DNA of 64,000 nucleotides, from assembly GCF_032118995.1 (NCBI RefSeq), contig NC_092661.1:18237185-18301184 (forward strand). Direction: 5' to 3'. Positions 18,503-42,246 of this stretch are shown one piece after another (the stretch's first letter is position 1; each line of letters begins with the position of its first letter). The position numbers and the translations under genes are program-made. This DNA is from Asterias amurensis. Its lineage: Eukaryota. The notes beneath the pieces are model-generated. The model saw nothing but the letters and a program-made list of their open reading frames with translations, had not been told where the DNA came from and did no database searches.

Positions 18503-18833
18503 AATATTATATTTAAAAAAATAGTAGATAAAAATATTACATTATGGCAAACCCTTCATGCACTCCACAATACAATAATCTTAGAACTGTTACATACCAC
18601 AATAATTCTTTCTCAGTTTTCTTAAATAGTTTCTTTTTCTTCATCACTGGACAAACTGATTCTCTTTAATCAGTTGGGCCATCTGCTCTGCATCCAAAAA
18701 TATGAGTTGAGTTGTAAACAATGTGACAGCACGAAAGATGGTCACCCCATCAAAATAAACACTGGCATATTTCAGTGATTTCTGTAATATGTTCCCACGG
18801 TCAAAAATTACTTTTCATTTAGCAATTTTTGAT

Positions 18834-19137
18834 TAAAGATGCTATGTCAGATTTTTGGCCGATTTGACCTAAAAATTTTGATTTAAAATTCAATAGGTAC
18901 TTTGATGGGCGTTGAGAAAGTTACAAGCTTTCATTTGAGCCATTGCTTGAAAAAGTCCGCCGAAATAAGGTGCTCAAAATTAGTTTTTGTCGGGATCCCG
19001 ACCATATATCACGTGACCATTTCTTATGTGTTTTATAAGAAACGTTTTAAATTTTTGTTCATGGTTCCTGACCATTGAAAGACTCAAAAAATAAATTTGT
19101 TAATGTTTGGGGCCAAAAATCTGACATAGCATCTTTA
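18834..19137. mobile_element. MITE family E (~300 bp). 28-bp TIR TTAAAGATGCTATGTCAGATTTTTGGCC.
   Basis: Perfect terminal inverted repeats. Single copy in the window. Confidence 0.8.
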
Positions 19138-20340: not shown

Positions 20341-20362
20341 ACATACATACATACATACATAT
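20341..20362. repeat. (ACAT)n microsatellite, ~5.5 units.
   Basis: acatacatacatacatacatat. Confidence 0.9.
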
Positions 20363-20635
20363 AAGGCATTCATAAAGCACCACTACAACAAGAACCCAGC
20401 GCATTAGATTGGGTATAAATACCGTTTGATACACTTCTTATTTTCAACTGTTCATATTTTACCATTAAGTATACCGGTATCAGATAGTTCTTATTAGATA
20501 CATTCCACCGTTAACTTCGTTACTTCTGTTTACTCAAATGTAATGGCCTCAAGGCATGAAGAGCATAACATTGTTCAAATCCATCGCCATCTGAATATGA
20601 TATATAATTACATGAATACTTTAACTTTGAGTGCG

Positions 20636-21007
20636 TTAAAGGAACACGTTGCTATGGATCGGACGAGTTTGTAACCGTTTTTATAAAATGCATATATGGT
20701 TAGAAAGATGTTTTGAAAGTAGAATACAATGATCCATACAAATTTGCTTTAGAGTTGCGTGGTTTTCCTTTTACTGTGCGAACTAACACGCTCTGCCATT
20801 TATGGGAGTCAAAAATTTGACTCCCATAAATGGCCGACCGTGTTAGTCGACGAGGTAAAAGAAAACCGTGTAATTTAGAGGCATGTTTGTGTGGATCATT
20901 GTATTCTACTTTTACATCTTTCTACCCATATGCATTTTATAACAAACAGTTAAAAAACGCTTTTCAAAGACCAACTCGACCGATCCAAGGCAGCGTGTTC
21001 CTTTAAG
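20636..21007. mobile_element. MITE family B. The whole element is a near-perfect ~370-bp palindrome. TIR TTAAAGGAACACGTTGC.
   Basis: Left and right halves are reverse complements (..gaccgtgttagtcgacgaggtaaaag.. / ..cttttactgtgcgaactaacacgctc..). Centred on ggagtcaaaaatttgactcc. Confidence 0.85.
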
Positions 21008-24000
21008 TCTAAGTGTGTTGTATTAAGAAAACTCAACTTAAGTAATCTTACAAACATTTTTGTGACGCTATTGAGTTTACTATTTAGGAAAAAATTTAAA
21101 ACAATCTTTCCTTGCTTTGTTTTTCAAACCATCATTCACTCATTCATTTTTCTTGAAGTATAATTGGATTGTGCAAACATGTTCTTTTGGGAATTGATTG
21201 ATGTATCAACTTTTGCTCGCGTGCCTTCACTTGGCATTCTGAACTCTCAGTCATTAGCGGCCATACCCTTTTATCACAACGCAAATCCATTCTGGGACTC
21301 CTCAGTGTATTGAATTTCACTCGGGTCTAGACGCCAATAATAAAACTGAATTTTCCCCTGATATTTCAAACATCTGTGAATCCAAAGAGACTAGGTTTTT
21401 GTAACTGCTTGAAGGAATTGGTGAATTTATTTGTTGTTAAAGATTATATGACCATTCACTGTCTTGAAGTAAATTTAGACCTAATAGAAGATGTATTAGG
21501 CTTTAATAATATTTTTAAATGGTTTAATTTTTGTCAATGCCTCATCAAACATTTCCAAAATATTTCAAAAAGTGCAGAACATGTCCAGTCACTGATAACC
21601 ATTATAATAAAAATGTTATACTTTTCAGCAGACTCTAAGTTGAACTACCTTTGGTTTAACCACGCCAGTTTTAACTAAATCTTTACAGTACAGTTACGCA
21701 GAATTAGTTATCAGAAATTTTTGGACCTTTCAAAGTATTATTTTTTTTGCTGTTGTTGAGAATACCATATAATTGCAACAATGAAACCCTGTCTGAACAA
21801 AGCAAAGACATCAAACTTTCTCATGAAAAGCATCAGTATTCTCTCTGCAAAAACATGTGATGAGTTCACTGTGAATAGCAACGTCTTTGTTCGATATGAG
21901 CTGAATACAAGATCAAACAATGATGACAGGCTACCAATCTCTTGTAATCCTAATTACATATTAGCCTCAAGAAAAGGACAATTTTGAGAATGAAGTCCAG
22001 TACACTTTGTCCCTCTCTGTACAGGGGAAACACGGTAGATGCATGCTACAAAATGGATTGTCCACGGGCATACTACCAGCTAGTCAACTGACCACAAACA
22101 AAAAAGGACGCTCCAAAGTTGTTCTGGCCCTTAAAAACATCAACTGTTATTCGGTTTTGAGGAAATTGTATAGAGTGGTTAAACAGTTTTGGAGGAGAAT
22201 AAACTGACACAATTTTGTTTAAAGCTTTCAGAATAATAATATTAAGAGTGCTGTATCTACTGGCAAACTTTTGAAGCAGTATGAGACTTGAAGAACAGCA
22301 ATACAAAGAAAACATTATGACTTCAATCCCACAAATCTTCAATATTGGAAACATTCTTCACAATTCTACAGCTGTGAGGACAATAAATTTTGCACTTGAC
22401 TTACTTTTCCCGATTCGGCAGCAATCCTACGTTTCCCACGTCCACCCGATCCCGTCCGGGTTACAGGCAGATGAGCAGGAACTTTCTCAGTTGTAGACAT
22501 TTCTCTCCCCAAACCTCAAAACCAGATTCAAGATACTCTTGCAGTGTCGTTTAAGACTGTCTTGAAGGCAATGTAATCCAGCAGCTGATGTCCTAACAGA
22601 TGATGGCAGCTCAGCCTCTTTTACCACTGAATCCAAAGTTTCTTGTCCATCTAACCAAATTATAAAGAACCCAAATACTGTACCAGCTGGTCCTACTCCT
22701 TCCTCACTCCTCAATCCCAGAACAAATCTGTGTAACAGCAGGACTCACATTTATTGAGAGTGACCTTAATGGAATCAGTTCATGCCCCTCTTTCTCTCCA
22801 AGACACTCAAATCTCCAGAGCCAAATCTCCAGAGCCAAATCTCCGGGTTTTATTTAACAGGCAGGACTGCAAATAGTTCCCTGCTGTGTGATATTTGAGA
22901 CCCTCTTGGTATCACTCCCTTAGCGTTGTGTCCCTCAGTGAGCAAAAACCATACGCTCCCAAAGAAAAACTTGTTTTAATACTTGGTGCGTTCTATGTCA
23001 ATACTCAGTGGCTCATCAAGACAAATAAACTCACTGACTTTGGTACTGACCGTAGCACTTTCTTCTTAAACTATCTCCAACGACATCCTGCTCAATAACA
23101 ACAACCCTGCAACCCTTGTAATACCAATCTTTCCATCCAGGGATGTCCGATCCAATCAAAATCTCCCAGGTCACATTATCTCTCTTTATAATTTCACTTC
23201 TCCAGTTTTTTTATATCATTATTTATTTATTTATAGAGGCTACCCTGGCGGACCAATCAGTGAGTGGAATGTCCTTTTTGGGAAGTGAGCAGAGTTTATG
23301 GGAAAACTTCCTGGCGTCCCTGACATAGTGAATTATTTTGCTCTCATTTTTAGACGACCCTGATTTCTAGGGTTGTAAACAATTTGAATTACCGTCACAT
23401 ATCCCTCCCATACCCTGCTTGCTATACCTGGTCAGTCTGGTAACAGAATACTTCCAGACAAAAATTCTTCCGAACATCAGGACTAGATTGAAGCTAATTA
23501 ATTTCATTTCTGCATCTGATTACATTTGAAGTCCCTCGGATAAAGTGTAAGAGTATGTGATAGTCAGCTGCATGTGTGGCAGGGGTGGGGGGGGGTGACT
23601 TGTTGCATATCTTGTAGACTAAGGAGGAGGTGAAACTGAACAGTAACTCATTCCACTCTCTCAATGTGTGGATTCATTTAATCAAAGAAGAGGTTCACAC
23701 ACTAAGTGATTTCATAAATTTGAAATAGTGAAGATATAACCTTGAAATTTGTATATATAAATGCTGCAAATAATTTTTGTCAAACTTAGTTGTCTTAATC
23801 ATATCAACAGACTGGTTAAAAAAAAGGTGCTCGTAAATGTACTCTTTTTTTCATTACACAGAGTCTACCTAGAACTACTGCAGCGTGATAAAGCTTTCAT
23901 AAGCATCATATAAAAGAGAATCAGGGAGGGTCTTATGAAATAAAAAGGGAGAGGGTTTAGAAGTTTCTTTTTGGCTTTTATGTTATGATCCCATCTATAA

Positions 24001-24320
24001 CTGCCAGCAATGATGTCTTCAAGGTAAGGTCAAATAAAGTGTTAATAAGTAAAACATCAATGTCTGCTTATTTGAAACACTCCTTTACCTTAGCCTTGGA
24101 GTACTTTTCCAGAACTCATTTCTCAAGCATTCCACATTTTCTCCTAATTGTTCAAAAATGTGGAGACATAAGCTACTTGATTTGAATTTGCACTGCTGCA
24201 ACACTCCGCAATTCAATATTGGAGTCCAATGTGGACAATTATTGGATACTTCGTAGCAACGTTTCCAAATTAATTTCTCCCAACTCATTTGTCCAATCAA
24301 GGCAAGGTTGGTGTTAACAT

Positions 24321-24346
24321 TTTTTTTTTTTTTTTTTTTTTTTTTT
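24321..24346. repeat. Poly(T) run of 26.
   Basis: Direct reading. Confidence 0.95.
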
Positions 24347-25446
24347 CAATTTCATCTTGCTTCTCCTCGTACAATGGAACAGTCAAGATTTCACCTTGCA
24401 ATTATTTTCTGTGACAACGCATTCATATACATCCAATATTTGTATAATATAGTGTGGCCCCTCAGAAAGTTTATAATACTAATAAAAATTTAAATAAATT
24501 AAAAAAAAACTTTTTTTTATTTTTTATTTTATAACTTATATGCTCTTTCCCTGAGTAATGTAGCTGTTTTGACATAACCATTTTCTACTCCCCTTTTTCC
24601 CCTTTATGAGTTTTGCTGAAACATTTTCATTATCTCTTAAACGATCTTTCAAACATAGTCTCTAAACTCATCCTCCAACTAGTAATCCTGCCACATGGAC
24701 ACGTTATCTTCTCACTAACGCCATTGAATCTTAAACTGTCTTTTACCAAAACTTAACTTTTTTAAATTTTCTTTTTAAGAATCACACAACTGCAGGTATA
24801 GTTTCAGTGTTGAAAGAGTTCTTTCTAAAAATACATGATCCACCCATAGATCATCCCTTTCAGGAATTCTTCACTTGACTGAAATAACAGAGCGATAAAC
24901 AAGGTGCCGAGTCCTATCGCTTTAAGAAGATTGATCAGTCATTAACATGCCCCTACATTATGTCATAAATCCAAGACATCGGGAAAATTTGAACTTGGTT
25001 AGATCACTTCCTTCGTCAATGGTTTGTCTTACCCTAAAATATTACTTATGACACTGTGATGTTCCAGATTATAATAAAATTATTTCTAACATAGAGAACA
25101 TCATAATCATCGTTCGGGGACAGAAGAAATTTAAACAAAATTCCTTGACTTTAGGATGAGAACTTGGACTTAAAGAAAAAGACTTGCCAAAGGAGCTGAC
25201 ATTTTTATTCAGCTTGAACATTTAAAAAAATGTATGTGTTTTTAGCTCCAGATTTATAATTGTTCAGAGCCCAGTTTCGTAACTCTGTTACCAGTAAGCA
25301 AATCTTTGTGCTTCCCATAGCAGAAAATGAGTGCAAGCAGAAGAGTATTTCAATAATCATCAAAAAGATTTGACATTGATTATCTTGAATTGATATTAAG
25401 CTGTTTCATAGATGACCTGCATGTATAAGGTTTGCGGTGGTACTCA

Positions 25447-25837
25447 TTAAAGGAACACGTTGCCATGGATCGGACGAGTTGGTCTATAAAAAGGGTTTGT
25501 AACCGTTTTTTTATACAATGCATATGGTTGGAAAGATGTTTTAAAAGTAGAATACAATGATCCACACAAGTTTGCCTCGAAATTGCGTGGTTTTCCTTTT
25601 ACTGTGTGAACTAACACGGTCGGCCATTTATGGGAGTCAAAAATTTGACTCCCATAAATGGCCGACCGTGTTAGTCGACGAGGTAAAAGGAAAACCGTGC
25701 AATTTCGAGGCATGTTTGTGTGGATCACTGTATTCTACTTTTACAATATCTTTCTACCCATATGCATTTTATAAAAAACGGTTACAAACGCTTTTCAAAG
25801 ACCAACTCGACCGATCCAAGGCAACGTGTTCCTTTAA
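25447..25837. mobile_element. MITE family B, full palindromic copy.
   Basis: Same TIRs. The central ggccatttatgggagtcaaaaatttgactcccataaatggcc is a perfect palindrome. Confidence 0.9.
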
Positions 25838-26747
25838 TGACAAAATTGAGTCATGACAGTTGCAACAGCAGTAAAAGGGAATCGGTTCAATAAAACCATA
25901 CTGGCTGGTCCTTGCTCGATGTATGATTTAGTCAAAAGAAGCACAGATCCAAATAACAATGTCACTGGTATAATTCATCACCGTTTTCTCAAAGAGCCAC
26001 TTATGCCAAAATGGGCTGAGGATTATAAAAAATAAAAAGAGCATAAATTCACAATTAATTAGTTTTTTGTGATGTTTCTGAACAAGAACCAATATGAATA
26101 AGTACATTAGAAAATTTGTACTCACAAAAAATTCTCACAAAAAAAAATACTAAAAGAAATACTGAATGACTTTAAGGGTAATGCTTAACCATGCCTCAAG
26201 GAAAATGAAGAATTCTTTGAAATTACCTTCCACAGAGCCAGCTGGAACAAGTCATTACCAGTAAATACTGGTCTGAGTTTTGACAGTTTCCTTGTAAATG
26301 TTTTAAGGAAACACACAAATGTAAAATAAATTCAATTTTTCCAAGGCTATATGAATCTATGTTCAAATCTCCATAGGAATTGGAATGTTAATGATCACGG
26401 TGGAATAAACCTGGATGCTGAGGTCGGTCATGGCAACTTTTGACTAGTTGTGACCGGTCATAACCGTTGTGACCGGCCATAACTGCCTAAAAGCTGCCAT
26501 TTGCAAAAGCAAATAGGTTCTATGTTTTCCTAGCTCTATGGTTTACCAGAATATTACACTGTATGTTTAATACACATAAATGTAATAAGACCGTTGGGGT
26601 TTAGCACTTGAGGTCACCATCAACCATTTGAACATAAAATGGCTACATTACAACTTGTCTAATAACGCAACAAGCATGCTCCAATCTTTTCTTGAGATAG
26701 TACAGAAGTTATGGGCTGAACATTGCTAGTGGCTGTCACTGAATATG

Positions 26748-27143
26748 CCTTTAAAGACCCTGGACACTACTGATAATTGTCAACGACCAGTCTTCTCACT
26801 TGGTGTATCTCAACATATGCATAAAATAACAAACCTGTGAACATTTGAGCTCAATCAGTCATCAAAGTTGCGAGATAATAATGAAAGAAAAACACCCTTG
26901 TCACACAAAGTTGTGTGCTTTCAGATGCTTGATTTCGAGACCTCAGATTCTAAATCTGAGGCCACGAAATCAAATTAGCAGAAAATTACTTCCGTCTCGA
27001 AAACTACGTCACTTCAGAGGAAGCCGTTTCTCACAATGTTTTATACTATCAACCTTTTTCCAATTACTTGTTACCAAGTAAGGTTTTATGCTAAAAATTA
27101 TTTTGAGTAGGCCCAATTACCAATAGTGTGCACTGCCTTTAAA
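26748..27143 (+). mobile_element. MITE family A, full copy.
   Basis: TIRs cctttaaagaccctggacactactgataatt / aattaccaatagtgtgcactgcctttaaa. The internal module is conserved. Confidence 0.85.
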
Positions 27144-27957
27144 TGATGAATGAGTCTTTCCAATTATTACTACATACAAAATAAAACTAATATTAGTTTA
27201 GTTTCCCAAATAATATTGAAGCCATGTCCAGATCTTCATGCTCTACTTGCTACAAAGAATGTTAATGGTCACAGTATAAAATAACCTATGCAATCTGTGG
27301 GAGCGATGATGAGTGGGTATACTGGCTGTATGTTCATGTAATAAAGTGGAACATTCTTGGGGTTCCTGAAATCCCATGACTGTAAACTTATCAAGGAGTT
27401 GGAAAGGGGGGGTAGGGAATGGGGAGAAAAATTCAAAGATGATTTGTCATCTTGTTGTTGATTCAAACAAGATGCAGAGATTATAAGCCGATGTTGGCGC
27501 CATGAAACAAAATCATGGCACTGGCGTCTTTCTGGCTGACCTCGGATGCTGCAATGATTTTCATTTTCATACAAATAATTTTGTTGTTTAAACTTCAGGA
27601 AATGTTCTAGTAAGCCACAATATCAATGTGGGGGACAGACTAATTATTACATCGTGTATGAGCAGAACTTTCATCATGAGTGTTAATGGGTACATACATC
27701 CCATGGCTTTGCAGAGTATGGTCAGTGACTACTTACAAAACTTGGTAACCATCTATCTTAAACTTGGTAATACCTTTCAGACCTTGTGATACATAGCATC
27801 TGAGAAGTATTTCTTTTCAATACTGGATGCGGGAGCTCCAAGAGTAGAATTAGGACTGAGCAATTCCAATATTAAGACAGGTGTGGTTCAAAATGCAGAA
27901 AATGTTTGAATTGCTTATGTTTTGTTTTATGTTGCTGTTTCATAATATTCAAGATCT

Positions 27958-28204
27958 GGGCCCAATTTCATAGAGCTGCTAAGCACAAAAATTTGCTAAG
28001 CATGAAATTTCTTCCTTGATAAAAACAGGGTTACCATCCCAATTTCCATTTGTTGAACATTGCTTGTTACTGGTATTCAGCTGCTGTTTGCTTATCCTGA
28101 AAATCACGTGGAAATTTGGTTGGTAATCCGTTTTTTTTCTTCGAGGAAGACATTTTCATGCTAAGCAAATTTGTGTGCTTAGCAGCTCTATGAAATTGGG
28201 CACA
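27958..28204. mobile_element. MITE family D (~250 bp). TIR GGGCCCAATTTCATAGAGCTGCTAAGCAC.
   Basis: Terminal inverted repeats gggcccaatttcatagagctgctaagcacaaa / tgtgcttagcagctctatgaaattgggc. Confidence 0.8.
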
Positions 28205-28416
28205 AGTCTGCTTCCACAAACAAGATCTTCTTGATCGCATTAGATAGAGCTTGATTTAATAGATGATATTACTTGACATCTCATCCACCTTCATATGTTA
28301 TCCCTACTCTATAATGGATCTGCCTCACTGCTGCACGACCTATATGTCATTTACTTGTAATATTAAATGCATGACAATAATCAGCTGCTCAACTCCAACA
28401 TAAAAATCTGTGCCAC

Positions 28417-28600
28417 TTCTTCAACAGAGGGCAGCAAACAAGTCTTGAAAATTAAAACTTCTCATCCTATTCAAAAGTTTTTGGTAGAGGGCAGCAAATT
28501 CTTTTCCAGAGAATCACTAACATTATCTCATTCAATTCCACAAGGTTTCATCCAGTTTAAACCATGATCCATCTCAACAGAGGGCAGCAAACTCTTTTCC
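28417..28600. repeat. Three spaced direct repeats of (c)aacagagggcagcaaaNNcttttccag, at ~28419, ~28486 and ~28573.
   Basis: Direct reading; minisatellite-like. Confidence 0.6.
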
Positions 28601-29972
28601 AGTCTTTCAACTCTCGATACTTGAGAAACTCAAACAATATATTCTCATTCTATTCCACAAGAGGGAGGTTTTTAACCTTTATATCTGTAAGGCAATTTCA
28701 TCCCTATTGATCAGGTGAAGTGCCCGAACAGGTGTTTTAAAACAGTTAAGAATATACATTTTAATGCTATTTCATCTAGACAAAAAGATGAAAATGTATG
28801 AATTTAACTAGTAAAATGTAGTTGTTTTTTTTTTTTTTCAATATACAAAGCCAACTCCACATAACAAGTAGCGGTTGATATAGAACCAGTTAATTGACTG
28901 CAGTTTTTAACAAGTTCATGCCCATCACCCATAACACGTTATCACAGTCAGAAGCAACACCCACCATGTGCTTATTTAAGTTTACTTTCACTGCCTGCAA
29001 AACCCTTGTCTTTGGCAATTTAGAACCAGAAACAAGAAGAGCAAGACATGAATTATTCTAAGCTCCAAGGATCATGGTAAACACAAAAGTGAGGCTTTGA
29101 ATCCAGAACTGCCACCGAATATCACAATTCCTGAAGTACTTTGATAAAACCATCAACAATTTTCTTCTAGTTTTGGTACAAAGCACAATCTTAGACATCA
29201 AACAAATCATTGGCAAAGGTTGACAATTGCCTGCCAAGTGCTTACATCCCTTGATGTAAAGAAGAAATAATATTGATACTTGGTTCACACTATTTACCCA
29301 AACTGTGCTGCAAAGAAGTAAACCTTTCTGAAAGTTTTTAAGGCATTGAAACCCAACACATAGTGGTGGTCTCCAAAAAATGTTTGAGGAGTCTCAACAA
29401 TCATAAAAGTGACACTCATGAAGTTGATTACTGTACGAAACATTGCCACTGATATTGGTTTCAAACAAAAAGTTCACAGCTGAGAATGTAGCTTACCTCC
29501 ATATCCGATTCTTACGCTTGTGGTTCCCAGCAAATGATCACTGTACGATCAACGTCTGAATGTAAACTGTTTGGTAAACCTTGGGGGTTCTTTGTCAAAC
29601 AAGCCACCAAGTTCCTAATTGAATTTCCTTTGTCTTCCAGGTGAACCCATCTTAATTGGTCTTCTTCAGTGACCATGATTAATGAGCAGAGGACCGGCGA
29701 CTTAAAGGATGTTTTTCGTTATAGCGCGAGGTCACGTCATGACAGCAACGTAAAGATTTGTTTAGATCATGAATACCTTTGGCCCTATGTGCATGTAAAG
29801 ACATTAACCCCTTGAAGTGAAAATATATGATATTGATGGTCATGCACAAAATTCTTCATCGCTGAGAAGACAGAAACAACTCAATTAAGATTTTGAAATT
29901 GTAGAAAACACAGAAGAAACGCCCTCTGTAAAAAAAAAGTACAACAGTAACTCAATAAAACTGAGTACCTAC

Positions 29973-30191
29973 CTCGTCACAGGCGATGCAGCGAGGTAAT
30001 ACCAGCTCAGCGTAGTGCCGTTCACAGAAGATATGCCCGTCTTTATGGAAGTATGCTAAATCTACTAAAAGCTCATCACATGAGTAGCAGGTAAAACAAA
30101 ATGGATGCCAGCATAACGAGTCGTCCTCTAACAAGTCTGCATAGACACCCATATCACCCGCTTCAATCTCACCGCCACATTTAAAGCACTC
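29973..30191 (-). CDS. Internal coding exon, LIM domain 1 of the PET-LIM protein. Translation: ECFKCGGEIEAGDMGVYADLLEDDSLCWHPFCFTCYSCDELLVDLAYFHKDGHIFCERHYAELVLPRCIACDE
   Basis: Acceptor cctattttacgtag|GAG and donor GAG|gtaggt. The LIM signature C-x2-C...CWHPxCFxCxxCxELLVDLxYFxxDGxIxCxRHxAELxxPRCxACDE closely matches Prickle LIM1 (also Testin/LMCD1-like). It is 219 nt (73 codons) and contains ORF 29952..30152(-). Confidence 0.85.
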
Positions 30192-31253
30192 CTACGTAAA
30201 ATAGGAAATAATTGAAGAACAATCTTTAAATCTTATGAAAATATTCTCCTTTTAACCACTACATCATTGTCTGTCTCATTGTCATGTTTAAATCAATTGT
30301 ATTATTTCAGGCCTGGTACTTCACGAAGGCAAGGAAGGCGATTACCTCCTTTGCCCCTTGCCATTGCCTTGGTGCCCTTGAAATGCTCCAGTAGAACTTT
30401 ACAATTTCCTCATAGGGTGACATTTACCAAGGAGAAAATGCATTGGTGCCCTTGCCATTTCAAAAATGAAGCATACAGGGATGGATTTCACAAACAGTTA
30501 AGACTAGTCTTATCTTGAGTTAGGGCGAGTTACTCATCCTAACTTAGGACTAGCCACACGTTTTGTATATCTCTTAGGACTAATCCTAAGTTAGGTTTAG
30601 TCCCAACTCTTTGTGAAATCGACCACAAGTCATGTTTGTCCATATCTGGTTAGGCTATAGTCCGCATTTGGAAGTGGTACCTCTTTCTAATTTCTGAACC
30701 CCAGAACCCAAACAGCTTCTGTGACACATCTATTTGTATTTATTTCTATTTCTTTGGTGGAGAGGGTTGACAACTAAATCAATGCAGTCTAATTATTTAG
30801 ATAATTTAATTGGAAACGCTTTGTATTAGGAATGGAACCAAGTTAGGCTTGCACTATTAATAATCTCCTAATTTTGGTTTCAATTTATCCTTAAATGGTT
30901 ATTACCTTTCATAAAAGATGAAACATACTTGTTTCTAAAAAGGAATGTCTGGTATTCAACATTCCAATTCCTGAATGTTGTTGGAGAATGTTGTAACTGA
31001 ATGTTATTCCACAGTAATGTTTGCCATTTGGAGAATCATTACCCAGACATTTCCCCACAGGGCAATTCAAAAAAATTACCACAGAGCCCAAAATCTGCAA
31101 AACTCATCAGCAAAAGGTTCTGCTTTGTTGGTCATGTTTGCCAAGGAGTACTCATGTGGTATAATTTATTTCATTTGTTTTTCCACCATAGATCAAAGTA
31201 AAGTTGTATGGCACTCTGTGGAGATCATGGACATTCAAAGCACAAACTAAATT

Positions 31254-31353
31254 TTCATAATATCTCAAGAGAAGTCTTTCACATTACCTTCTGTAAACCT
31301 TGTAAGCTATTTGTAAATCTGTGAACTTTTTTTCTTTTTTTTCTGTTCCGAAA
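31254..31353 (+). mobile_element. MITE family C, 3'-terminal ~100-bp partial copy directly abutting the full copy at 31366.
   Basis: ttcataatatctcaagagaagtctttcacattaccttctgtaaaccttgtaagctatttgtaaatctgtgaacttttt... matches the last 100 bp of family C. Confidence 0.75.
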
Positions 31354-31365
31354 ATGTATAATGCC

Positions 31366-31728
31366 TTTAAAGCCATTGGACCCTTTCGGTAAACAGTGTT
31401 GTCCAAGGCCCACACTTTGTGGACCACAACTTCTATATCAAATAACAAACCTGTGAAAATTTAGGCTTAATCGGTCATCGGAGTCGGGAGAAAACCACCC
31501 AAACCCACTCTTGTTTCCGTGCGTTTCCCCGTGTCATGACATGTGTTTAAAATAAATCCGTCATTCTCGTTAACGAGAATTTATATTGTTTTGCTGTTTT
31601 CTTAAAAAGTAAAGCATTTCATGGAATAATATTTCAAGAGAAGTCTTTCACCATTGCCTTCTGTAAACCCTGTAAGTTATTTGTAAATCTGTGAATTTTT
31701 TTTTTTTTCTGAACCGAAAGGGCTTTAA
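31366..31728 (+). mobile_element. MITE family C, full copy. TIR TTAAAGCCATTGGACCCTTTCGGTA.
   Basis: TIRs ttaaagccattggaccctttcggta / (g/t)accgaaagggc(t/c)ttaa. Two more full copies elsewhere. Inside the PET-LIM intron. Confidence 0.85.
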
Positions 31729-31803
31729 GAGCTTTGCGTATCAGAGCTTTTTATCCACACTGTTGAACCTCATCCTCCTGTCATGCTTCCATATTCTACA
31801 TAC

Positions 31804-32040
31804 CTGATCTTCCTTAAGGTAATCTTTAACCCTTCCTGTTGAAAAGGCAACCTCATCTCTGAGCTCAATGAATTGATAGAAGCACTCGGTGGAGGCTGCA
31901 TCCAGGATGTGTCGACAGAGATCTTCTGACAGGTCCTGGTGAGGCATCTGAAGGATGATCTGCCGATCCCGATATTTCTCCCCAGCACTATGCAGCCTCG
32001 GGATTTGGTTGTTTGGAAGGGAATTCATGAAGTCTTCCAC
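31804..32040 (-). CDS. Internal coding exon, PET domain core. Translation: VEDFMNSLPNNQIPRLHSAGEKYRDRQIILQMPHQDLSEDLCRHILDAASTECFYQFIELRDEVAFSTGRVKDYLKEDQ
   Basis: Acceptor ttaattcccaaaag|GTG and donor CAG|gtatgt on the minus strand. Joined to the upstream exon it reads ...WVPQGLSPAK|VEDFMNSLP...S.GEKYR, which aligns with Prickle PET '[34 protein letters not shown]'. It is 237 nt (79 codons, phase 0/0). It lies inside the 175-aa ORF 31741..32268(-), whose upstream part looks non-coding. Confidence 0.8.
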
Positions 32041-32685
32041 CTTTTGGGAATTAAGGTCGTTAATATAGATAATTATATTTTGTATGTTTTGGTTGTCACG
32101 CCTTGAGCGCCTACTCTTAGCTGCATATGTGCACTTTGTAAGTTTTTTATTTTTCATATTTTTACTTTTAACAAACATAGGAATGATACAGTAAAACTTT
32201 GATACAGAAAACTTTTTCCAAAATTGATTGTGTCGATAGAGGGCAGCATTCTGTTTTATGGAGAGCATCTAGTGAATTGACTTTATTTATCTTGATGAAG
32301 AAAACACCTCTCCGTGCCATATAAACCGTCTTAAACCATGCATTAAGGTTCAAATAAGTATTAATTTATTATAGTACATTTTCCCCCACTTTTAAATTTT
32401 TTGTAAATGCTTGTACACTTAATGGCATTTCCCCCACACTGTATCAAGACTCTAACTTAAGAATTAAGTTCAACAAAGCTGTTAACTTTCCATAGAGTTC
32501 TAATGGGAGACTTATGGGAACACTAGGTGGCAGCAGACTGACCAGGTAAAACTCATCAATATTGGAGATAAGTGCACACACTCAACCTACACCTTGGCCA
32601 AACTACCCTGTGTGTCTCTTGCCACATCATGTCCTGTAGTCTCCCTATGTCTTAGATGAAATGAAAACAGACAAACATTGTTTAC
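32041..32685 (-). other. Intron (645 nt) between the two PET exons.
   Basis: GTAAAC donor at 32685 and aaaag acceptor at 32041. Multiple stop codons in all frames. Confidence 0.7.
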
Positions 32686-32866
32686 CTTTGCTGGAGAAAG
32701 CCCTTGCGGTACCCATGAGTAGCCAAGACTTAAGGCTCGTTCCTTGCTACGTACTAATTCATTGTGGTCTTTGGTATCTATGCCTAGACGTTCATATACA
32801 GTCACTAAGTTATCATGGATGATGTCATGGTCGTCTCGTTGACAACCACAAGCTGTACATGTACTC
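32686..32866 (-). CDS. Internal coding exon of a Prickle/Testin-family PET-LIM gene (start of PET domain). Translation: (x)STCTACGCQRDDHDIIHDNLVTVYERLGIDTKDHNELVRSKERALSLGYSWVPQGLSPAK
   Basis: Minus-strand acceptor ttatttcttgttctctcattatccag|G and donor AAG|gtaaac. The motif CxxCxCxxDDHD(I/V)(I/L) and ...Y.WVP.GL match the N-terminal PET region of Prickle/Testin proteins as I recall them. The exon starts at phase 2 (1 nt + 60 codons) and the open frame lies inside ORF 32587..33084(-). Confidence 0.75.
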
Positions 32867-33018
32867 CTGGATAATGAGAGAACAAGAAATAATGTATAAT
32901 GAGCTGATCTGCATACATACTGAATATGAAAAAAGGTACTACCTGTCAAAAAATAGTTGTTAGATGATTTACATAAACAAAAATATGTTTTAATAAGGAA
33001 ATCAATGTGTAGTGAAGA

Positions 33019-33122
33019 GGTTTTCAACTTGTGGTTTAATCCCAACGAGGCCTGGTTTTTGATAAAGTCGAGGTAAATTATCAAGAACCAGGCCTCGGAG
33101 GGTTTAAACCACTAGTTGAAAA
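33019..33122. repeat. Hairpin H1 (~100-bp inverted repeat) directly 5' of F1.
   Basis: ggttttcaacttgtggtttaatcccaacgaggcctggttttt ... aaccaggcctcggagggtttaaaccactagttgaaaacc. Confidence 0.8.
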
Positions 33123-33145
33123 CCGATTCAACACACTTTGATTCT

Positions 33146-33536
33146 CATTCATAAATACCTTTTCGGTCAAAAACATCAACACTTTTTGGTCAAAATGTAA
33201 AATAAATGCAAAAATTATAATTGTACAATGATTCCTTTCAACACAACACCCCTCCAGCTATGAAATGGTAAAGCCCTCCGTCGCCCTCGGGTAAACAACT
33301 CCTTTTAAGGGAATGCTGTGCGCGTCGCGCGTGTATCGCGTGATGTGGCACAACTGTTTCAGCCGTTGCTCTCGACCAATAGGAATGAAGAAACTGTCTT
33401 ATAAGAACAGGTGCAAGCTCGCGTGTCACGCCCATGTTTCAACACTTTTTACTGGTCATAAACAAAGGTTTATACACACCCACGTGACGTGCTCTCCACC
33501 AATAGGAATCGCGAAACTGTCTGAGGTATTTATGAA
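33146..33536. mobile_element. TIR element family F. Termini ATTCATAAATACC / GGTATTTATGAAC. GC-rich CpG core with E-box/CRE/CCAAT motifs.
   Basis: A second copy at 53388..53712 shares the termini and the 3' ~90 bp (aaaggtttatacacacccacgtgacgtgctctccaccaatagg...). In both copies it is immediately preceded by a ~100-140 bp hairpin (H). Confidence 0.65.
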
Positions 33537-36500
33537 CATTGATTTAATAAGCCTAACAAAACAATTTCAACACAATTGCTTTTTCCTGAGTATGAAAAAA
33601 AAGAAATATGCATCCTATGTTTAAACACAAATTAATATACTGCAACCATGGGCATATGGGGAATTTGGTTAAAACATAAGAACTAAATTTTAGTAACAGG
33701 TAAATAGTATTTGTTGCTTTCTCTGTCAAATATTTTTCTTCTTGCTATGCCCAGAATTCCCCAAATGATTTGCTCAAATTTGGGGCAGGACAGTTCCCCC
33801 CTGCCCCCTGAGTTTATACTCCTATAAATGTAACTAAAAAGTTTGGAGGAAGGGGAAGGAAAACAAACATGGGCAACAAAAATGTTAATGAGAATAAACA
33901 AAAGGACAAAACACTACTTGTTTATTGATATTTTACTAGTTAGTTTTTTTAAAACAGTTAATATTAAAAATTATCTTGTCTTTGAGTATTTCAACCTCCC
34001 TATAACTTTAACAAGAAAGAAAAGGCTTAACGATGTGACTGTGGGGAATTTGTTTTCAAAGGATACTTAACACTGGCAATTTTAAACCATCACTCATCTA
34101 AAGACTTAACTGAATCGACCAACCGCAAAGCCAGACTGATTACAAAACCAAATGTTAGTTACTTAAAATATCAGTCAAAAGTCAGGAACCATACAATGGT
34201 ATGTTATGAAGCAAGGAGTTCACTCAAAGATCCTCTATGCTCAGTTGAGGAGTCTACCAAGACAGATATAAACCATCAGACTTGAAATCCACTGGGACAA
34301 TTTTGAGCTTATTGGTTAAGACATTTCTGTTCAGGAAAAAATATCATACACATGTTGGAAATACGTATGTAATGTGTAATCATCAAACCAGATCAAAATA
34401 CCTCTTTGGTAAAGTGTTACAGCGCCCTCTTTTGACATTAAGAAGACAGTGGATGATCTTGTCACAACTTCTTCATAATCTCAGTGAGTCCTGTTTGAAT
34501 TGAAGGCCATACCTAAACCTGATATGAGGGTTGTGGTAGTGGTATCATGCTTACAGAGACAGTCTAATCAATTAATCAAGTAAAGTTTGATCAATTAAAA
34601 CTGGTGCAACATGGTTCAATAATGCAACATCAGTGAAACCAAATAAAATCCCACATTTTGTTGTTTTAGTTTGGAGATAAATATTTTGAAATTCAATGTA
34701 TCAATATTGTGATGAAGACAATGTTCTACCAAAGAACAGCCAAGCAAACCCTCTCCATATAACTTAATCCAGGTTTCTGCACTTTGTAAATCAAAAAGAT
34801 TCTGCCCCTGACCCTATAAGAACCCCATGCCAATAAGATGAGATGTCCCTTCACGAGGCGAACCCAACTGCCAAAAGCTGTCTCGTCTGACGATACAGAT
34901 GGCACTGAGTGAGGACAGATGTTAAGAGTGAATCAGAGCAGGATACGAAGAATGAAACAATCGTTGTCTGCTATACATGTGGGTCAAGCGAGATATCCAA
35001 TTCATTCAGCTGATCAAACTTTTCAAAAAGGGGGCAGCAGGGCTGTTGGTTTGACAGAGGGGTGAACAATTTAGGGTAGGATTTCTAAGAAACAAATGTT
35101 CCAGTGAATTGCTTTAAGAAGGTTGCAGTACTTTCTTTCAGCGAAAATAACAAAATCAATCCCATTTTGTCCGCAGTTATTGATTCTTTTCTACAAATGA
35201 GCAAATCGTCAAGACATGGGGACAAATTAATTTGATATGCAGACAATTTCCATTCACACAATGGTTAATATGATATTTCAGACGATGTTCCAATACAATT
35301 CACTTTTACATTTCATTTCAAATCTTCCGTTTTGAAGCAGGTAAATGACAGCAATTCATTGAACCATGATCACTGAGTACACTTAAATCAATGACAAGTA
35401 TTCTGTTTCCTTATTGGTTGAGCTGAAGTAAGATTTATAAATATCCTCTGTAACAAAAACTAATAGTACGTCTGTTTTTGTAGACAGATCCAAATAACGC
35501 CTACACATGTGCCAGGGATGCCAGTCTACTATAACTCACTTTATTCTGTTCCAATAATTCTATTATAAGCTAATGAGCAGGTTATTGTGTCAGGATATCA
35601 TTAGCTTTGGGATATCATATCCCTTGATGAAAAATGTTTCAAAGAAATAAAGAAATTCAAAATCCACTAAAAATTATTAAAATCAATGGCAAATATATTT
35701 TAAAGTTTCATTTTGGGAGCAACATTTTTGGAGGCTTCAACAATTACCAAGAATCTTGGGCCATGGGTTCATGGAGGATTTTTGACTATTGAAAATGTCA
35801 CGTAAAGTATTTATGGATGTGATGAAAAATGACATACCATCACATTTCAACAACAGGATGCGTGTGCTTGCGTGTGGGAGACATTGTGGTGAAATTTTAA
35901 GGTTGATATGTATACTACAGCGGTTTGTATCTACCCACAGGCAAGTGTAGAATAGACTAAATGATTACAACAACAAAACTTATGAGTGTAATATTTCATA
36001 AAGTTCATTGACATAAATCATCATTTAAATGTAAGGTTACATATCTCGTCTGTCACACTTGTCTTAGTGGGACAAACTACAAGTTTGGGAAAAGTTTCCG
36101 CATGGCGCCACCACTTTTGCATTCGATTTGAAATAATATAGTATCTAATTTACCTCAATGAGATATCCCTTTATGTAAAAAATGAGTGAAAAAGTGGGAA
36201 AGTAATCCTTAATGTGATTTGAGTTTGATACAAGTCACACTCAAGAAAAGTAGATCCAGTTATTGTAGGAGAGAAAGAGAGAGAGGGATATTATTTTGTA
36301 CACTAGTAGACCAAAGTCTTCTGCAATTATATTGTTTTGATCATGGTTACATTACTATCAACTCCATATTTCACATTTGTAACAACTAGGATTTGAAACT
36401 CTGCTTAGTGGAAATACGATATAGTAAGGTTTGTGGTAACACCATGCAATGATAATCTCTAAATGAGTTGGGGTGGTTCTGAAAAGATGGGTCACTATGA

Positions 36501-36652
36501 ATCTCATCTGATTCCGAAAACCACAACAAATATTGATAAAGCCCTACATAGATTACTTTAATTTCTTATAACCTAGTTAATGTCCCCCAACTTTGTTATT
36601 AAGGATTCTTTCATTCATCTGCAATGTACAATATAAATAATGGATGATAATG

Positions 36653-37008
36653 TTTAAAGGCAGTGGACACTATTGGTAATTACTCAAAATAATTATTAGC
36701 ATAAAACTTTATTTGGTAACAAGTAATGGGGAGCTGTTGATAGTATAAAACACTGTGAGAAATGGCTCCCTCTGAAGTAACATAGTTTTTGAGAAAGAAG
36801 TAATTTTCTATGAATTTGATTTCGAGACAACAGATTTAAAATTTGAGGTCTCGAAATCAAGCATCTGAAAGCACACAACTTCGTGTGACAAGGGTGTTTT
36901 TTCTTTCATTGTTATCTCGCAACTTCGAAAAACCGACTGAGCTCAAATTTTCACAGGTTTGTTATTTTATGTCTGTGACAATTACCAATGGTGTCCAGTG
37001 TCTTTAAA
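36653..37008 (-). mobile_element. MITE family A, full copy (inverted orientation).
   Basis: Reverse-complement match to the copy at 10143, including TIRs. Confidence 0.85.
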
Positions 37009-39761
37009 GGTCTTTGATTTACCATGGAGCAGTTTGTTGCTCCATGGATTTACAGAGCCAATCTGATCAGCCTAGTTTAATACAATGAAGGCTTTGGGCA
37101 AACCACAACAATATGGTTTTAATTACATCATACCACAATCTAAGTGACAGGAACATGTGTACTGGTGACATTTCAATATAACAGTTCGAAGTCATTACCA
37201 AATTAAGTCTACTGGCTGCGGTGTAATACATCAACGACTAGAGGTTGAGTTGACGTGCAAGACCAATGACAAATTTGGCCATTGTGGAAGGAGCTTCATT
37301 AATGGAAAACTAGAATATATCTTTCACCAATACTAAATGTAGATCATGTTACTGGAAAAACATTCATTCAAAAGCAGTTAACAGCAAGTGTGCATAAGGA
37401 ATTTCCAATATTCAGACATAAACATTGTTATGTTAAAATGACAGGTACTGGAATTCAAATCTTGTAATTGCACATTTTTTTATTACAAAATGTACTTAGG
37501 TCTCAAAGTTGATTATAAATATGATATTGGTATAAGAAGATGACACACTAATAAGTTTCCTGGTGGTGTTTTTCCACCAACCACATGAAAAGAAGAACAA
37601 AAACCAAGGTTTAAGACAGCATTCAATGCACATTATAAATTGCACCATGGACCCATACGTACGTATAAGGGTTGGGTTACAAGACACATTATCCAGAAAC
37701 TCACTTCATGAATTACACTTCGAAAAGGAATAAAACTTGAAAAATTTAGAACAACCAAGGTATTGTTATTGCCGAGTTGTATGGTCTCCTTCCAAGAAAA
37801 ACAAGTGGCATTAATTCTTAAAAAAGAGATAAATAAAGTTGACTTTATGAGAGACAAAAATCCAAATGCTGAGTTGATGGCTAAAGATTGTGTTGTTGGT
37901 AAAACTTAATATAAAAATGCACACGTTTCCTAGTTACTGATCACAAAAGTCATCTATCTCTACTTATTCTAAATTTTCCAGCCAATCAACTTTGATTATG
38001 GCAAATTAATTAAACATCCGCCGTTGGGCAGACTAATTCTGTATTCTCATTGCGGGGGTACCGTACCCTAACATGCTACCTGGCTGGGTTCCAATCAGTT
38101 GAACATTGGAAGAAAAACTTAGGCGGCATGTCATTTGATATAGATGAAGAGTTTTTCAAATTGGATTTGAAATGTTCATCATGTTTTGAATGCATCACAA
38201 ACCCCAAACCAGAATTAAGAAAGATCCTTATTAAACAGGGAACATGCAGAGCCCTGGAATTGAATAGCTGTTTGTGATGAGTTGCTTAAATTACAGCTAA
38301 ATGAAAGGATAAACTGACTCCCTGAAAAAGGGGGTATTTGATCTCTTCAATCAGACGGTTATTTCCTGGTTTTAAAATAGATGCGGATGTAAGGGTTGGG
38401 TGCACTTTACTTATAAGATACTTTCGATCAGTTTTTACTCTGAAATACAATCAAACTGAGGTATAAAAAAACAGGAAGTCATGTTTGTAAAAAAAATTTG
38501 GTTAATTCAGTTTGTTTTATCAACATTTCAATTTAATGTGAAAGTTTCGTAGAAAAACGGCCTAGTCCAAAGGGAAACTAACAACAACTAACATTTGGGG
38601 GATAGAAATGGTAGAATGGTCATAATTAACAGCAAGGTTTCTGCACTTGTCTTACATTCAGTAGCAGAACAATTTCCATTTTACTTTAGATCGGTAACAA
38701 TTAGCTAGCTTCAGACAAAATCTTACATGGAACGATCATACCAGCTCTTATAACCATGACAACCAACACTGTCAATGTGCAATTACACCAACAAAACTCA
38801 GCTGGTGGATTCGTAAAAAAAACAGCGTCTAAAAACAGCCACACTACACAATGTTTTTGATGATTTCTGAGTCTAAAAATAAAACCTCAGCTTGTTAAGA
38901 ATAGCTCGGTCTCTTGTTATGAGCGCGCGATGACGCACACATGTCAATTAAGTGGCTATACCAATGTCATGTTCCACAATGGTGATCCATGTATCTTTGA
39001 GGATGTGTGGTATCAAATATACATCAGATGACAAATCAAATGATTATGTCTACAACCTGGAAGGGGGTGGAAGGATGGAGTGGTCTAATTTCCATTGCTA
39101 GTCTGTCGTCAACATCTTACTGAGCATATTGGTATGGGGGATGGAATCTATTTTTCTTTCTGCTTCCTGAGGAGGTTGTCACAGCATTAAGTATGATCCT
39201 TTAACAGGATCTTAAGAAGTAGGCCAAGGTCTAGGGGATGTGCAGCAGCCCATGGGGGACCGATGGGGGTGTAGGGTGATCCTAACCTGGTTTGGTCCAT
39301 CAAAGAGAAAGACCCAATCACATCTTTTGTGCATTAAACAAATATTATGCTTCACAGCTGGAATAAGCAAGGTTGCGAATAGAAGAAGATTTTGTTCAAC
39401 ATGTTCCTCACCAATCACATTTAACTACTAAGCTTCTCAGTCCGAGACATAAGTTGTAAATTCAAAACACATGGAAAAGATTTCCCTGAAATGATTCAAA
39501 TACAACAGGATTGTTATTTTTAATTTATTTTTTGGGTCAGCTTAGATTTTTTTATGAATATATTTTTGAAAATAATGTTGATATAGATATCACTTTATCT
39601 TTTATAGTGTGCTTGCATGTTTCTAATGGTCCTTGGATTTGTGAAAAACATTTTAAGATGCCTTTCTTTTTAGGTAGTAATTTGCCAATTCCACATTAAG
39701 TATATGATATAAAAGTACATAAAATCAGCTCTCAGATTTCAGTACCTTTATTATTTATACA

Positions 39762-39996
39762 GGGCCCATTTTCATGGATCTGCTAACCGCTGAATTCTGC
39801 ACTTACGATCACCATTCTCCGCTTGCCTGGCAAGCAGCGAATTTCTGTGCTAGTGTTATAAGCATTGAACGCCTAGTAACGCGGAGTACGCCTGTGTACA
39901 AGCCAAAATTTCCCGTGCTTGACGTAAGCACAGAATTCGCTGTTTCTGTAAGCACAGATTTTTTGCTTAAGGTAAGCAGAGCTATTAAATTGGGCC
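39762..39996. mobile_element. MITE family D-related. TIR GGGCCCATTTTCATGGATCTGCTAACC.
   Basis: TIR plus internal similarity (gaattctgcacttacgatc..., ggtaagcagagc) to the copy at 54287. Confidence 0.8.
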
Positions 39997-40692
39997 AGAT
40001 GTTGAAGCGAACTCAAATGGTTTAACCAAGCTACAAAAAAGAGGTCAGCTAAAGCCCATTGCTTTAAACCATGTTTAAACAAATTCCCTTTACTCATCAT
40101 TAAGTCATTCAACACCAGTTGCCTTCTCATGTTTTGTCACCTTGTCAACATTTAAGGTGCATCAGTGTATTTGACCACATCAAAATGCTTCTTGATCCTG
40201 ACATTTAGAAAGACTAACGGCCATACAACCTCTGAAGAAAGAAAAACTGGGCCAGCTACGTGCTGATCATGACTTCAATTTGGCAATTAGAGTAATTATC
40301 ACCCAGCATTTATATGACCCCTCAACGAGAACAGGTGCAATGGAGACACAACAATGTCAAGTGTACAAGATAGATTTGAACTATGGAGGAATCAAAAAGA
40401 TAATGCTAAATGATACACGGTGACTTGGATTTACTAAACGTGGCACTCTAAACAAGTAGCGTAGGATACTGCATCTTTGTTAAAGTGTGCGGTAGATGGC
40501 TAGCAACAATGATGGCTTTCCAACTATTGTAAAACAGATAGTTTGATAACACCACGCTGAACAATCAACATGATTATTTTGTTTCTGGGACTATTTTGAG
40601 TCAATTTCTAACAAGATTATTTCTGATTTCAAACATACTTCATTTAAAATTTCTAATGGAGCTATCTTTAAATCCGGGTTGAGCAAAGGGAA

Positions 40693-40830
40693 ACGGAATT
40701 TGAACCAACAGAGCTATCTAGGCCTAATGATGGCGGTCTGCCTATTTTGTTAATATCTTTTTTCTGGAGTGCCAGTCAAATACCACACATGTGGCCGGGA
40801 TCACACCCAAGTATATGATATAATCTTCGA
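40693..40830 (-). repeat. Family T copy with an internal deletion of the tRNA-like part, plus an extended shared body (gtgccagtc...gggatcacacccaagtata...).
   Basis: ggaatttgaacc|aacagagctatctaggcctaatgatggcggtctgcctattttgttaatatcttt. The tail matches 63430..63540. Confidence 0.55.
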
Positions 40831-41648
40831 GGCTGCAGCCAGGGGATTATTTAAAATATCGCGCAAAAAACAAGTAACTATCTTTAGTGAAGAATGCACC
40901 ATCTCAATTTCTTTTATATTTTCCAGTTGCACTGGAGGCTAATGCATGTTATGAATTCTGAGTTTCAACCACAATGTGTATATAGCCTACATATCATCTC
41001 CCCAAAGTTAAACAAACATAACATTCCTTTCAAGAAACATCTTTTATTTATTTAAAAAATGGTTGACTAATTTATTTATAAAGCAGATCTAGGAAAATTG
41101 ACTACATGTAACTCCAACCAAGAACCATCTGGCATCAAGCTCAAAGATAATACTTGGATGACAATTTTAAATGAATTATGACCCATACTGCTTGGCATGG
41201 CTCTAGAGCAGGTTAGTTTACTCCAAGAACTAGCAGTTTAGACGGGAAATCTAGAAATACAAGTAACTGTAACATAACACGGAAGAAACATTCGCTTCAT
41301 AGATTATGTATGAACAGTATGTATCTAGGTTTTAATTTAATGTTACTTTGAGGAATCCATCCCTGAAATCCACTTCCTATTTGATTTTTTTGATTTTATC
41401 AAACCTTATTAGATTTTGTCAATCAGACCTGAGCCATCCAAGACAATTTAATAAAAAAGTTATATTGGTAGTACTTGCGAGATCAAAAGCTCCCTATCCA
41501 CCCAACCCCCACCCTGAATATTTTGTCAAGTCGTTGTGTGAAAAATAAACAATAACAAATTATTAAATAAATTAAAAGTTCATGATTTTAAACTGTCAAA
41601 ATACAACCATTTGATAATTCACAAATAGAGACAATGCCTAAAAGTTCC

Positions 41649-42024
41649 CCTTAAAGCCAATGGACCCTTTCGGTAAACACTATTGTCCAAGGCCCAGCCT
41701 TCGTGTATCATAACTTATATATAAAATAACAAACCTGTGAAAATTTAGGCTCAATCGGTCATCAGAGTCTGGAGAAAATAACGGGAAAACCCACCCGTGT
41801 ATCCGCGCGTTTCGCCGTGTTATGACATGTGTTTAAAATAAATCCGTAATTCTCGCTAACGAGAATTGATATTGTTTTACTGTTTTCTCAAAAAGTAAAG
41901 CATTTCATGGAATAATATTTCAAGGGAAGTCTTTCACCACTACCTTCTGTAAATCCTGTAAGTTATTTGTAAATCTGTGAACTTTTTTTTTTTTTCTGTA
42001 CCGAAAGGGTCCAATGGCTTTAAA
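41649..42024 (+). mobile_element. MITE family C, full copy.
   Basis: Both TIRs present. About 90% identical by eye to 31366..31728. Confidence 0.85.
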
Positions 42025-42180
42025 AAACCTACAACAAAATTGCTTAAAACTTCCTCACGATTGACTAATCTCTCTCAGACTCTCAATCCCTAATACTACA
42101 AAGCCCTCCTCATTTAGTTTTTCTTGGCAGAGTTAAAATGTATATAAAATCATTCAGCAAAGAAATATTAACTAAGAGTA

Positions 42181-42246
42181 AGAGCGGGACGTGAACCTGG
42201 GACCTCCAGATTAACGTGCCAGTGCACTCCAAATGTTTGTCCGAGG
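42181..42246 (-). repeat. Family T fragment (anticodon/T-arm-like part only).
   Basis: Reverse complement ...gagtgcactggcacgttaatctggaggtcccaggttcacgtcccgctct matches the T1/T2 core. Confidence 0.5.

Follow-up and report, generated by a model that had tools for sequence, protein, structure and literature searches.

The stretch analysed here, 64 000 nt of Asterias amurensis DNA (contig NC_092661.1; referred to throughout as the window), very probably holds the 5' half of one intron-rich protein-coding gene on the minus strand, the Asterias orthologue of Drosophila Limpet; we put the probability of this reading at about 0.93. Judged from its sequence, the gene is an echinoderm orthologue of Limpet that encodes a PET domain and six LIM domains, with a tail resembling the four and a half LIM domains (FHL) proteins, and it is not a Prickle gene. 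Five coding exons lie in the window and specify 250 amino acids (aa), namely a short N-terminus, a Cys-rich motif, a PET domain and LIM1, the initial LIM domain; this product is 100% identical to A. amurensis RefSeq proteins of 558–574 aa. The parts of the gene are given below in window coordinates, with a slash marking each splice boundary.

59657..59683, minus strand: coding part of exon 1b (alternative first exon), ATG AAA GGA CTG TTC TCC AAG AAC AAG = MKGLFSKNK; donor GTAAAA
44038..44123, minus strand: exon 2, 86 nt, encoding VFPYEEVDKGQPCLSCGDRCLGFTPHKW plus AG; acceptor cattag/GTGTTCCCC; donor /GTAAGT
32686..32866, minus strand: exon 3, 181 nt, completing the Cys-rich motif with its second half (CTACGCQRDDHD) and opening the PET domain (LGYSWVPQGL)
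31804..32040, minus strand: exon 4, 237 nt, main body of the PET domain
29973..30191, minus strand: exon 5, 219 nt, LIM1, ending ...CDE in phase 0; donor GTAGGT
28767..28775, minus strand: coding part of a candidate alternative 3'-terminal exon, ATG AAA TAG (ATGAAATAG), after the acceptor ...ttgtctag/
30192..59656, minus strand: introns 1b-2 (15.5 kb), 2-3 (11.2 kb), 3-4 (645 nt) and 4-5 (1612 nt), interleaved with exons 2–4
1..29972, minus strand: most of intron 5, holding the candidate alternative terminal exon besides interspersed repeats; no LIM2 exon

Exons 3, 4 and 5 are the first, second and third exons of a first-pass annotation made from the DNA letters, which had described a PET-LIM gene of Prickle/Testin type. 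The minus strand of 29900–32950 was read and the segments 32866..32686, 32040..31804 and 30191..29973 were concatenated (637 nt). A 212-aa frame is open from base 2 of this concatenate (peptide STCTACGCQRDDHD...PRCIACDE), and the acceptors (TCCAG/, AAAAG/ and CGTAG/) and donors (/GTAAAC, /GTATGT and /GTAGGT) are canonical AG/GT pairs at every junction, exactly as the three minus-strand exons and their phases had been described. The motifs quoted for the peptide were found literally in the case of CTACGCQRDDHD, YSWVPQGL, LPNNQIPRLHSAGEKYR and CWHPFCFTCYSCDELLVDLAYFHKDGHIFCERHYAELVLPRCIACDE, but not in that of 'EAxG.G', where the peptide reads DEVAFSTGRV. The Pfam model of the PET domain (PF06297) matches residues 40–132 of the 212-aa peptide with an E-value of 8.7e-21 (74.3 bits; Pfam cut-off 25), and directly C-terminal to it the LIM model (PF00412) matches with an E-value of 4.3e-7 (30.5 bits; cut-off 22.9). 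All eight zinc ligands of LIM1 are present in exon 5, in the arrangement C-x2-C-x23-H-x2-C-x2-C-x2-C-x17-C-x2-H. Since the best database match in the first homology search, a Lytechinus pictus protein, had an E-value of 1.4e-100, the three-exon PET-LIM observation is far beyond chance and is confirmed as real; the interpretation placed on it was only partly supported, as set out below.

The three exons had also been called the only clear coding content in the 64 kb, with the other exons not detectable by eye and either far away or outside. No other gene contradicts the former statement, but two further exons of the same gene are present: the exons for LIM2 and later domains are indeed beyond the window edge, past a large intron, and N-terminal ones are inside it, at 44123..44038 and 59683..59657. 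Exon 2, 11 kb upstream on the minus strand, was found by tblastn with sea-urchin and sea-star orthologues, to which it is 88–100% identical. The N-terminal Cys-rich motif has its first half in this exon, whose split codon AG/G (Arg) joins position 32866 in frame. Because an in-frame TAG stands directly upstream of its acceptor, exon 2 is not a first exon. (A homopolymer of ~15 G is found at ~44285–44300 on the minus strand, ~170 nt upstream of this acceptor.) The peptide MKGLFSKNK of exon 1b matches at 9/9 residues the N-termini of A. amurensis isoform X3 (P0127) and of an A. rubens protein (P0129), and the same sequence is found at the annotated start of the coding sequence (CDS) in the A. 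rubens locus L002. Upstream of its ATG, an in-frame stop occurs 24 codons away with no earlier ATG between. Two alternative first exons exist in the genus Asterias, of which 1b is the one within the window. The other, exon 1a (MADGGG...KKK, MADGGGSFQSSSSERFPATKRRKKK), was not found in the window by tblastn, by motif search or by blastn of the 5' region of the contig L001 (described below), and lies beyond position 64000; matches to KRRKKK at 46369–46422 were considered as exon 1a and discarded as low-complexity chance matches.

A profile search returned 482 proteins, the top match being Acanthaster planci 'prickle-like protein 3 isoform X2' (564 aa; 93% identical over 100% coverage), whose 90% cluster includes proteins of A. 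amurensis, A. rubens and Patiria miniata. The 241 residues of exons 2–5 are identical in the A. amurensis proteins XP_071800854/5/6, differ at one residue (H to R) in A. rubens XP_033635668.1, at 17 residues in Acanthaster and at 19 in Patiria. Two of the A. amurensis models, XP_071800854.1 and XP_071800855.1, are named 'testin-like' (X1/X2) and share all 241 residues; in the third, XP_071800856.1 ('four and a half LIM domains protein 3-like', X3), the MKGLFSKNK N-terminus is encoded in the window as well. No difference from the A. amurensis proteins was detected; what the window lacks relative to them is exon 1a of X1/X2 and the part after LIM1. The A. rubens locus L002 follows the window colinearly through exons, introns and repeats at ~93–97% nt identity, and a second locus of that species, L003, is colinear as well; between window and A. 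rubens the exons are 99.2% identical and the introns about 93–97%. The complete protein identity with A. amurensis and an nt identity of ~95% to A. rubens also point, from the sequence itself, to a congener of A. rubens, most likely A. amurensis.

Evidence on splicing was provided by L001 (JACSEG010000576.1), a 6753-nt contig of a close relative in a public assembly, which encodes a 563-aa orthologue without introns (1.1-kb 5' untranslated region, 1692-nt CDS and 3.9-kb 3' region; three residues differ in the shared part). In blastn, its segments 1220–1308, 1306–1490, 1485–1726 and 1724–1944 matched the window exons 44123..44038 (with L001 1222–1307 aligned and abutting exon 3), 32866..32686, 32040..31804 and 30191..29973, respectively. 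The four blocks are 95.5–98.4% identical and, after removal of chance extensions of 1–4 nt, abut exactly at the proposed junctions. Be L001 transcript-derived or a retrocopy, the mRNA that it reflects had been spliced at these junctions. Over 723 coding nt the window and L001 show 20 differences, 17 of them in the third position of a codon; counted by codon, 16 changes are synonymous and 3 nonsynonymous. The coding differences from A. rubens are 5 synonymous and 1 nonsynonymous. As the differences from both are mostly synonymous, the frame is under purifying selection. In view of the introns, the intact frame and the preponderance of synonymous substitutions, a pseudogene or retrocopy in the window itself was rejected.

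The remainder of the gene was sought in the window by tblastn with full-length orthologues (E up to 1000), by six-frame regular expressions for LIM domains and by blastn with L001; LIM2–6 are absent and LIM1 was the only LIM domain found. In orthologous loci, exon 5 is spliced over an intron of ~32–35 kb to the exons for five more FHL-like LIM domains. Positions 1–5192 of the A. rubens locus L003 are colinear with window 5722..1, and the LIM2 exon starts at L003 position 9971 (cctacag/CTGATCTTTTCTCAAGAG..., cctacag/CTGATCTTT...) and reads LIFSQEYVRAMDGSFH in phase 0, which places it 4779 nt (~4.8 kb) past the point that matches window position 1. Both the exon 5 donor after CDE and the LIM2 acceptor are canonical and in phase 0. 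The next exon had been predicted to begin IFA(D/N)ECTEAEGRHWH (IFADECTEAEGRHWH); instead, proteins 100% identical to the window product over the part encoded here continue LIFSQEYVRAMDGSFHPGHF. In A. planci the gene stretches over 126.7 kb and encodes a product of 575 aa. Downstream of the gene, a large NACHT/WD40 (NWD1-like) gene is found both in A. rubens (L003 26331–28214) and in A. planci; this neighbour lies outside the window, and the synteny is conserved between the two species.

The assignment to Limpet rests on domain architecture, signature residues and phylogeny. In Pfam searches the full-length A. amurensis protein P0128 shows a PET domain, six LIM stretches and LIM_FHL2-3_N, the same as Drosophila Lmpt (P0078, the D. 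sechellia protein, taken as a stand-in for Drosophila Limpet), and a true Prickle of the hemichordate Ptychodera, used as control, shows a PET domain and three LIM domains. Drosophila Limpet has been described as having a PET domain and six LIM domains, with PET-containing and LIM-only classes of isoforms, and a Hydra protein called 'Prickle 3 like' has the same architecture as Limpet (PMC6337844). The C-terminal LIM domains (LIM2–6) of P0128 find their best matches in solved FHL2, FHL3 and SLIM domains (5.9e-24 and weaker). It is in the orthologues, 100% identical over the window part, and not in the window itself that the five FHL-like LIM domains after LIM1 are seen; in the intronless L001 of the close relative, the PET head and the FHL-like tail stand on one 563-aa frame. 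Further likenesses to Limpet are the multiple isoforms arising through alternative first exons and the hydrophobic-W-hydrophobic-P motif at the start of the PET domain, SWVP in the window and TWVP in flies (PMC6337844); the differences are an identity of ~40–42% over the window-encoded part, intron sizes and isoform sets. Vertebrate FHL1/2/3 resemble the full-length orthologue in LIM2–6 but lack the head made up of the Cys-rich motif, PET domain and LIM1, which is the only part encoded in the window. In a neighbour-joining (NJ) tree of the PET-LIM1 region (165 columns, 200 bootstraps), the window groups with A. amurensis in a Limpet-type clade that includes Terebratalia 'limpet' and insect Limpet, and the echinoderm subtree follows taxonomy with 92–100% bootstrap.

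What had been named a PET-LIM gene of Prickle/Testin type is therefore a PET-LIM gene on the minus strand, as stated, but one whose LIM count and position in the tree place it in the Limpet group and not with Prickle; the three LIM domains expected in its protein are six in the orthologues. That the gene is an orthologue of Prickle, a core component of planar cell polarity with a PET domain, three LIM domains and a long C-terminal tail, has next to no probability in our estimation. Its appeal lies in the PET-LIM1 region, which is 39–43% identical to that of true Prickles and shares with them (Ptychodera XP_070559466.1, Molgula Prickle and shark Prickle1/2) the succession of a PET domain and a LIM1 of the common pattern CWHPxCFxCxxCxELLVDLxYF, in the N-terminal Cys-rich motif, also present in some Prickle isoforms, and in the automated naming of many orthologues as 'prickle 3-like' (RefSeq 'prickle-like protein 3'). 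However, the Prickle signatures DDDSGCALEEY[AT]WVPPGL, HDNEVRYC and CGRHHAE are absent, the window reading LGYSWVPQGL, HQDLSEDLC and CERHYAE; Prickle LIM2 begins IIFADECTEAEGRHWH, whereas the orthologue of the window gene continues LIFSQEYVRAMDGSFH; and the orthologues carry six LIM domains and stop directly behind LIM6, in contrast to the three LIM domains and long non-LIM tail of Prickle. Moreover, in an exhaustive search of representatives, Ptychodera and a crinoid were each found to hold a separate true Prickle beside a Limpet-type gene; true Prickle forms a clade, and in ambulacrarians a paralogue, of its own, and the window groups with the Limpet-type genes. An orthologue of Testin (Cys-rich region, PET domain and three LIM domains, ~420 aa) is very improbable as well. 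The head, with its Cys-rich, PET and LIM parts, does resemble the Testin described in PMC5436826, a solved Testin LIM chain (2xqn_T) is matched at 5.8e-20 by LIM2 of the full-length orthologue, and the A. amurensis RefSeq names read 'testin-like'; yet the full-length orthologues, 558–575 aa long, carry six LIM domains and a tail of FHL type, and three PET proteins with three LIM domains (P0175, P0194 and P0193; 400–432 aa) fall outside the Limpet clade at 32–35% identity, these three, none of them a named Testin or LMCD1, being the only proteins of that size and architecture in the tree. The Cys-rich motif had been considered as a sign of the Testin/LMCD1 type as opposed to Prickle, and this use of it was dropped: it is not diagnostic, because true Prickle isoforms carry it too.

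The other question to be weighed was whether the locus holds one gene or two, the alternative being a PET-LIM1 gene that ends at ATGAAATAG and, in the 32-kb interval, an FHL-like gene with a promoter of its own. We regard such a division as unlikely, and just as unlikely the corollary that the long product with a PET domain and six LIM domains is minor or artefactual. The division is the one drawn in the A. rubens RefSeq annotation, which has a 252-aa PET-LIM1 model (in L002) kept separate from 'FHL2-like' models of 287/298 aa (in L003), starting 32 256 nt downstream of the exon 5 donor; truncated PET-LIM1 models recur across many phyla, and Drosophila Lmpt is known to have LIM-only isoforms (PMC6337844). 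On the other hand, in the intronless L001 a single frame of 563 aa runs from the PET head through all six LIM domains, the models of A. amurensis, A. planci, Patiria, sea urchin, sea cucumber and crinoid are all full-length, and the phases of the CDE donor and of the LIM2 acceptor agree, as given above. Nor are the one-gene and two-gene views exclusive, since short and long isoforms may coexist. The candidate terminal exon (...ttgtctag/ATGAAATAG), 1.2 kb downstream of exon 5 and with ATTAAA right after its stop, is the last coding exon ('MK' and stop) of A. rubens XP_033635668.1 (P0129; 252 aa, 'prickle planar cell polarity protein 3-A-like', locus LR699102.1) and is conserved in the window; by this similarity it would yield a 252-aa isoform restricted to PET and LIM1 and ending CDE-MK. 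Gene models that end after CDE, mostly continuing with V by read-through of the GT donor, are found in sea urchin, bivalve, gastropod, spider and centipede (V tails in P0001, P0047, P0052, P0071, P0074 and P0054), and the corresponding read-through at window 29967–29972 would give CDE-VGTQFY and a stop. The recurrent truncation after CDE fits a conserved phase-0 intron, and the truncated models may be either a real, conserved short isoform or a recurrent annotation artefact of a very long intron. It is conceivable, with the odds against it, that a short isoform with the Cys-rich motif, PET domain and a single LIM domain and no FHL-like tail is a real and widely conserved Limpet product. Such an isoform would end just past the conserved phase-0 CDE boundary, in Asterias by means of the ATGAAATAG exon and in other phyla by donor read-through ('CDE/V...'). 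If so, it could regulate or compete with the full-length scaffold, a modest addition to the biology of LIM proteins.

Several points weigh against the assignment of the window to one Limpet gene with the role proposed below. In A. rubens the locus is annotated as two models, a PET-LIM1 gene and, 32 kb downstream, an FHL2-like gene. L001, a contig of a genome assembly, could derive from a transcript or be a processed retrocopy whose frame is intact, and support for the splicing comes only from this cDNA-like contig of a close relative and from RefSeq models. The deep split between Limpet and Prickle has a bootstrap of only 64%, the tree being a simple NJ one built on 165 columns. The role suggested for the echinoderm orthologues is drawn by analogy from other phyla, and Caenorhabditis elegans LIM-9 is a protein that we take to belong to the Limpet-type family, alongside nematode matches of the same architecture.

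A LIM domain is a double zinc finger, binding two zinc ions, that works as a protein-binding module. The full-length protein would then be a zinc-finger scaffold in which each LIM domain offers a surface for binding other proteins. What is known of nematode LIM-9 and fly Limpet makes it most likely, by analogy, that the protein is an adaptor at the cytoskeletal structures of muscle and of integrin adhesions. LIM-9 (FHL) is an M-line protein that binds CPNA-1 and, together with UNC-89 and UNC-96, has been assigned a position downstream of integrin-adhesion components (PMC3583664), the isoforms of Limpet differ among fly muscle types (PMC9636386), and in the related Testin intramolecular and dimer contacts are made through the PET and LIM1-2 parts (PMC5436826). 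Through alternative promoters, and possibly the alternative terminal exon, isoforms may arise in which the PET head or the FHL-like tail is present or missing.

The gene is already known, as RefSeq models exist in A. amurensis, A. rubens, Acanthaster and Patiria, and the present result has little importance beyond correct annotation. A single Limpet-type orthology group bears three misleading kinds of automated name (prickle-like 3, testin-like and FHL2/3-like). The names met with are 'prickle-like protein 3', 'prickle planar cell polarity protein 3-A/B-like', 'testin-like' and 'four and a half LIM domains protein 2/3-like', and isoforms of one Limpet-type gene can bear different ones. The very long introns (~11–35 kb here, and a 127-kb gene in Acanthaster) lead to gene models that are split or truncated right after LIM1. 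As for the N-terminal Cys-rich motif (C-x2-C-x3-C...H.W...C-x2-C-x-C....H), it is usually described for Testin and LMCD1; it was found in true Prickle isoforms of hemichordate, crinoid, sharks and ascidian (P0141, P0145, P0153 and P0172). It seems to be ancestral to all PET-LIM proteins and cannot separate Testin or Limpet from Prickle.

The window has a GC content of 36.5% without notable shifts, and neither tRNA genes nor Rfam families were found across it. Its two longest stop-to-stop frames are those holding exons 3 and 4, and the ten next-longest open frames had no Pfam match. A PDB sequence search with the window peptide gave generic LIM matches only and no solved PET domain. The introns contain three families of interspersed repeats of ~300–390 nt in both orientations, all of which occur also in the A. 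rubens loci.

10143-10531, 13615-13984 and 26750-27140, plus strand: repeat family 1, ~390 nt
36652-36971, 44636-45021, 50826-51089 and 54899-55242, minus strand: repeat family 1, ~390 nt
3813-3947 and 9234-9439: partial copies of repeat family 1
25447-25841, 20667-21010, 46478-46862 and 15830-16054, copies in both orientations: repeat family 2, ~390 nt
31365-31722, 41651-42026 and 56572-56871: repeat family 3, ~300–370 nt

Family 1 has at least nine copies of ~83–92% identity and is present in both L002 and L003; ARAGORN detected no tRNA-like head in it, and one copy lies ~500 nt upstream of exon 2. Family 2 forms a long near-perfect hairpin (arms 25507–25641 and 25644–25778, 88% complementary and 2 nt apart) and looks like a miniature inverted-repeat transposable element. 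One copy of family 3, which has a 143-nt module in common with family 1, lies in the 1.6-kb intron between exons 4 and 5; the duplicated 'ttcacagatttacaaata...' segment at ~31700 and ~31320 is explained by this family. Finally, positions 274–391 are a perfect tandem duplication with a unit of 58 nt (2.0 copies, 100% match).

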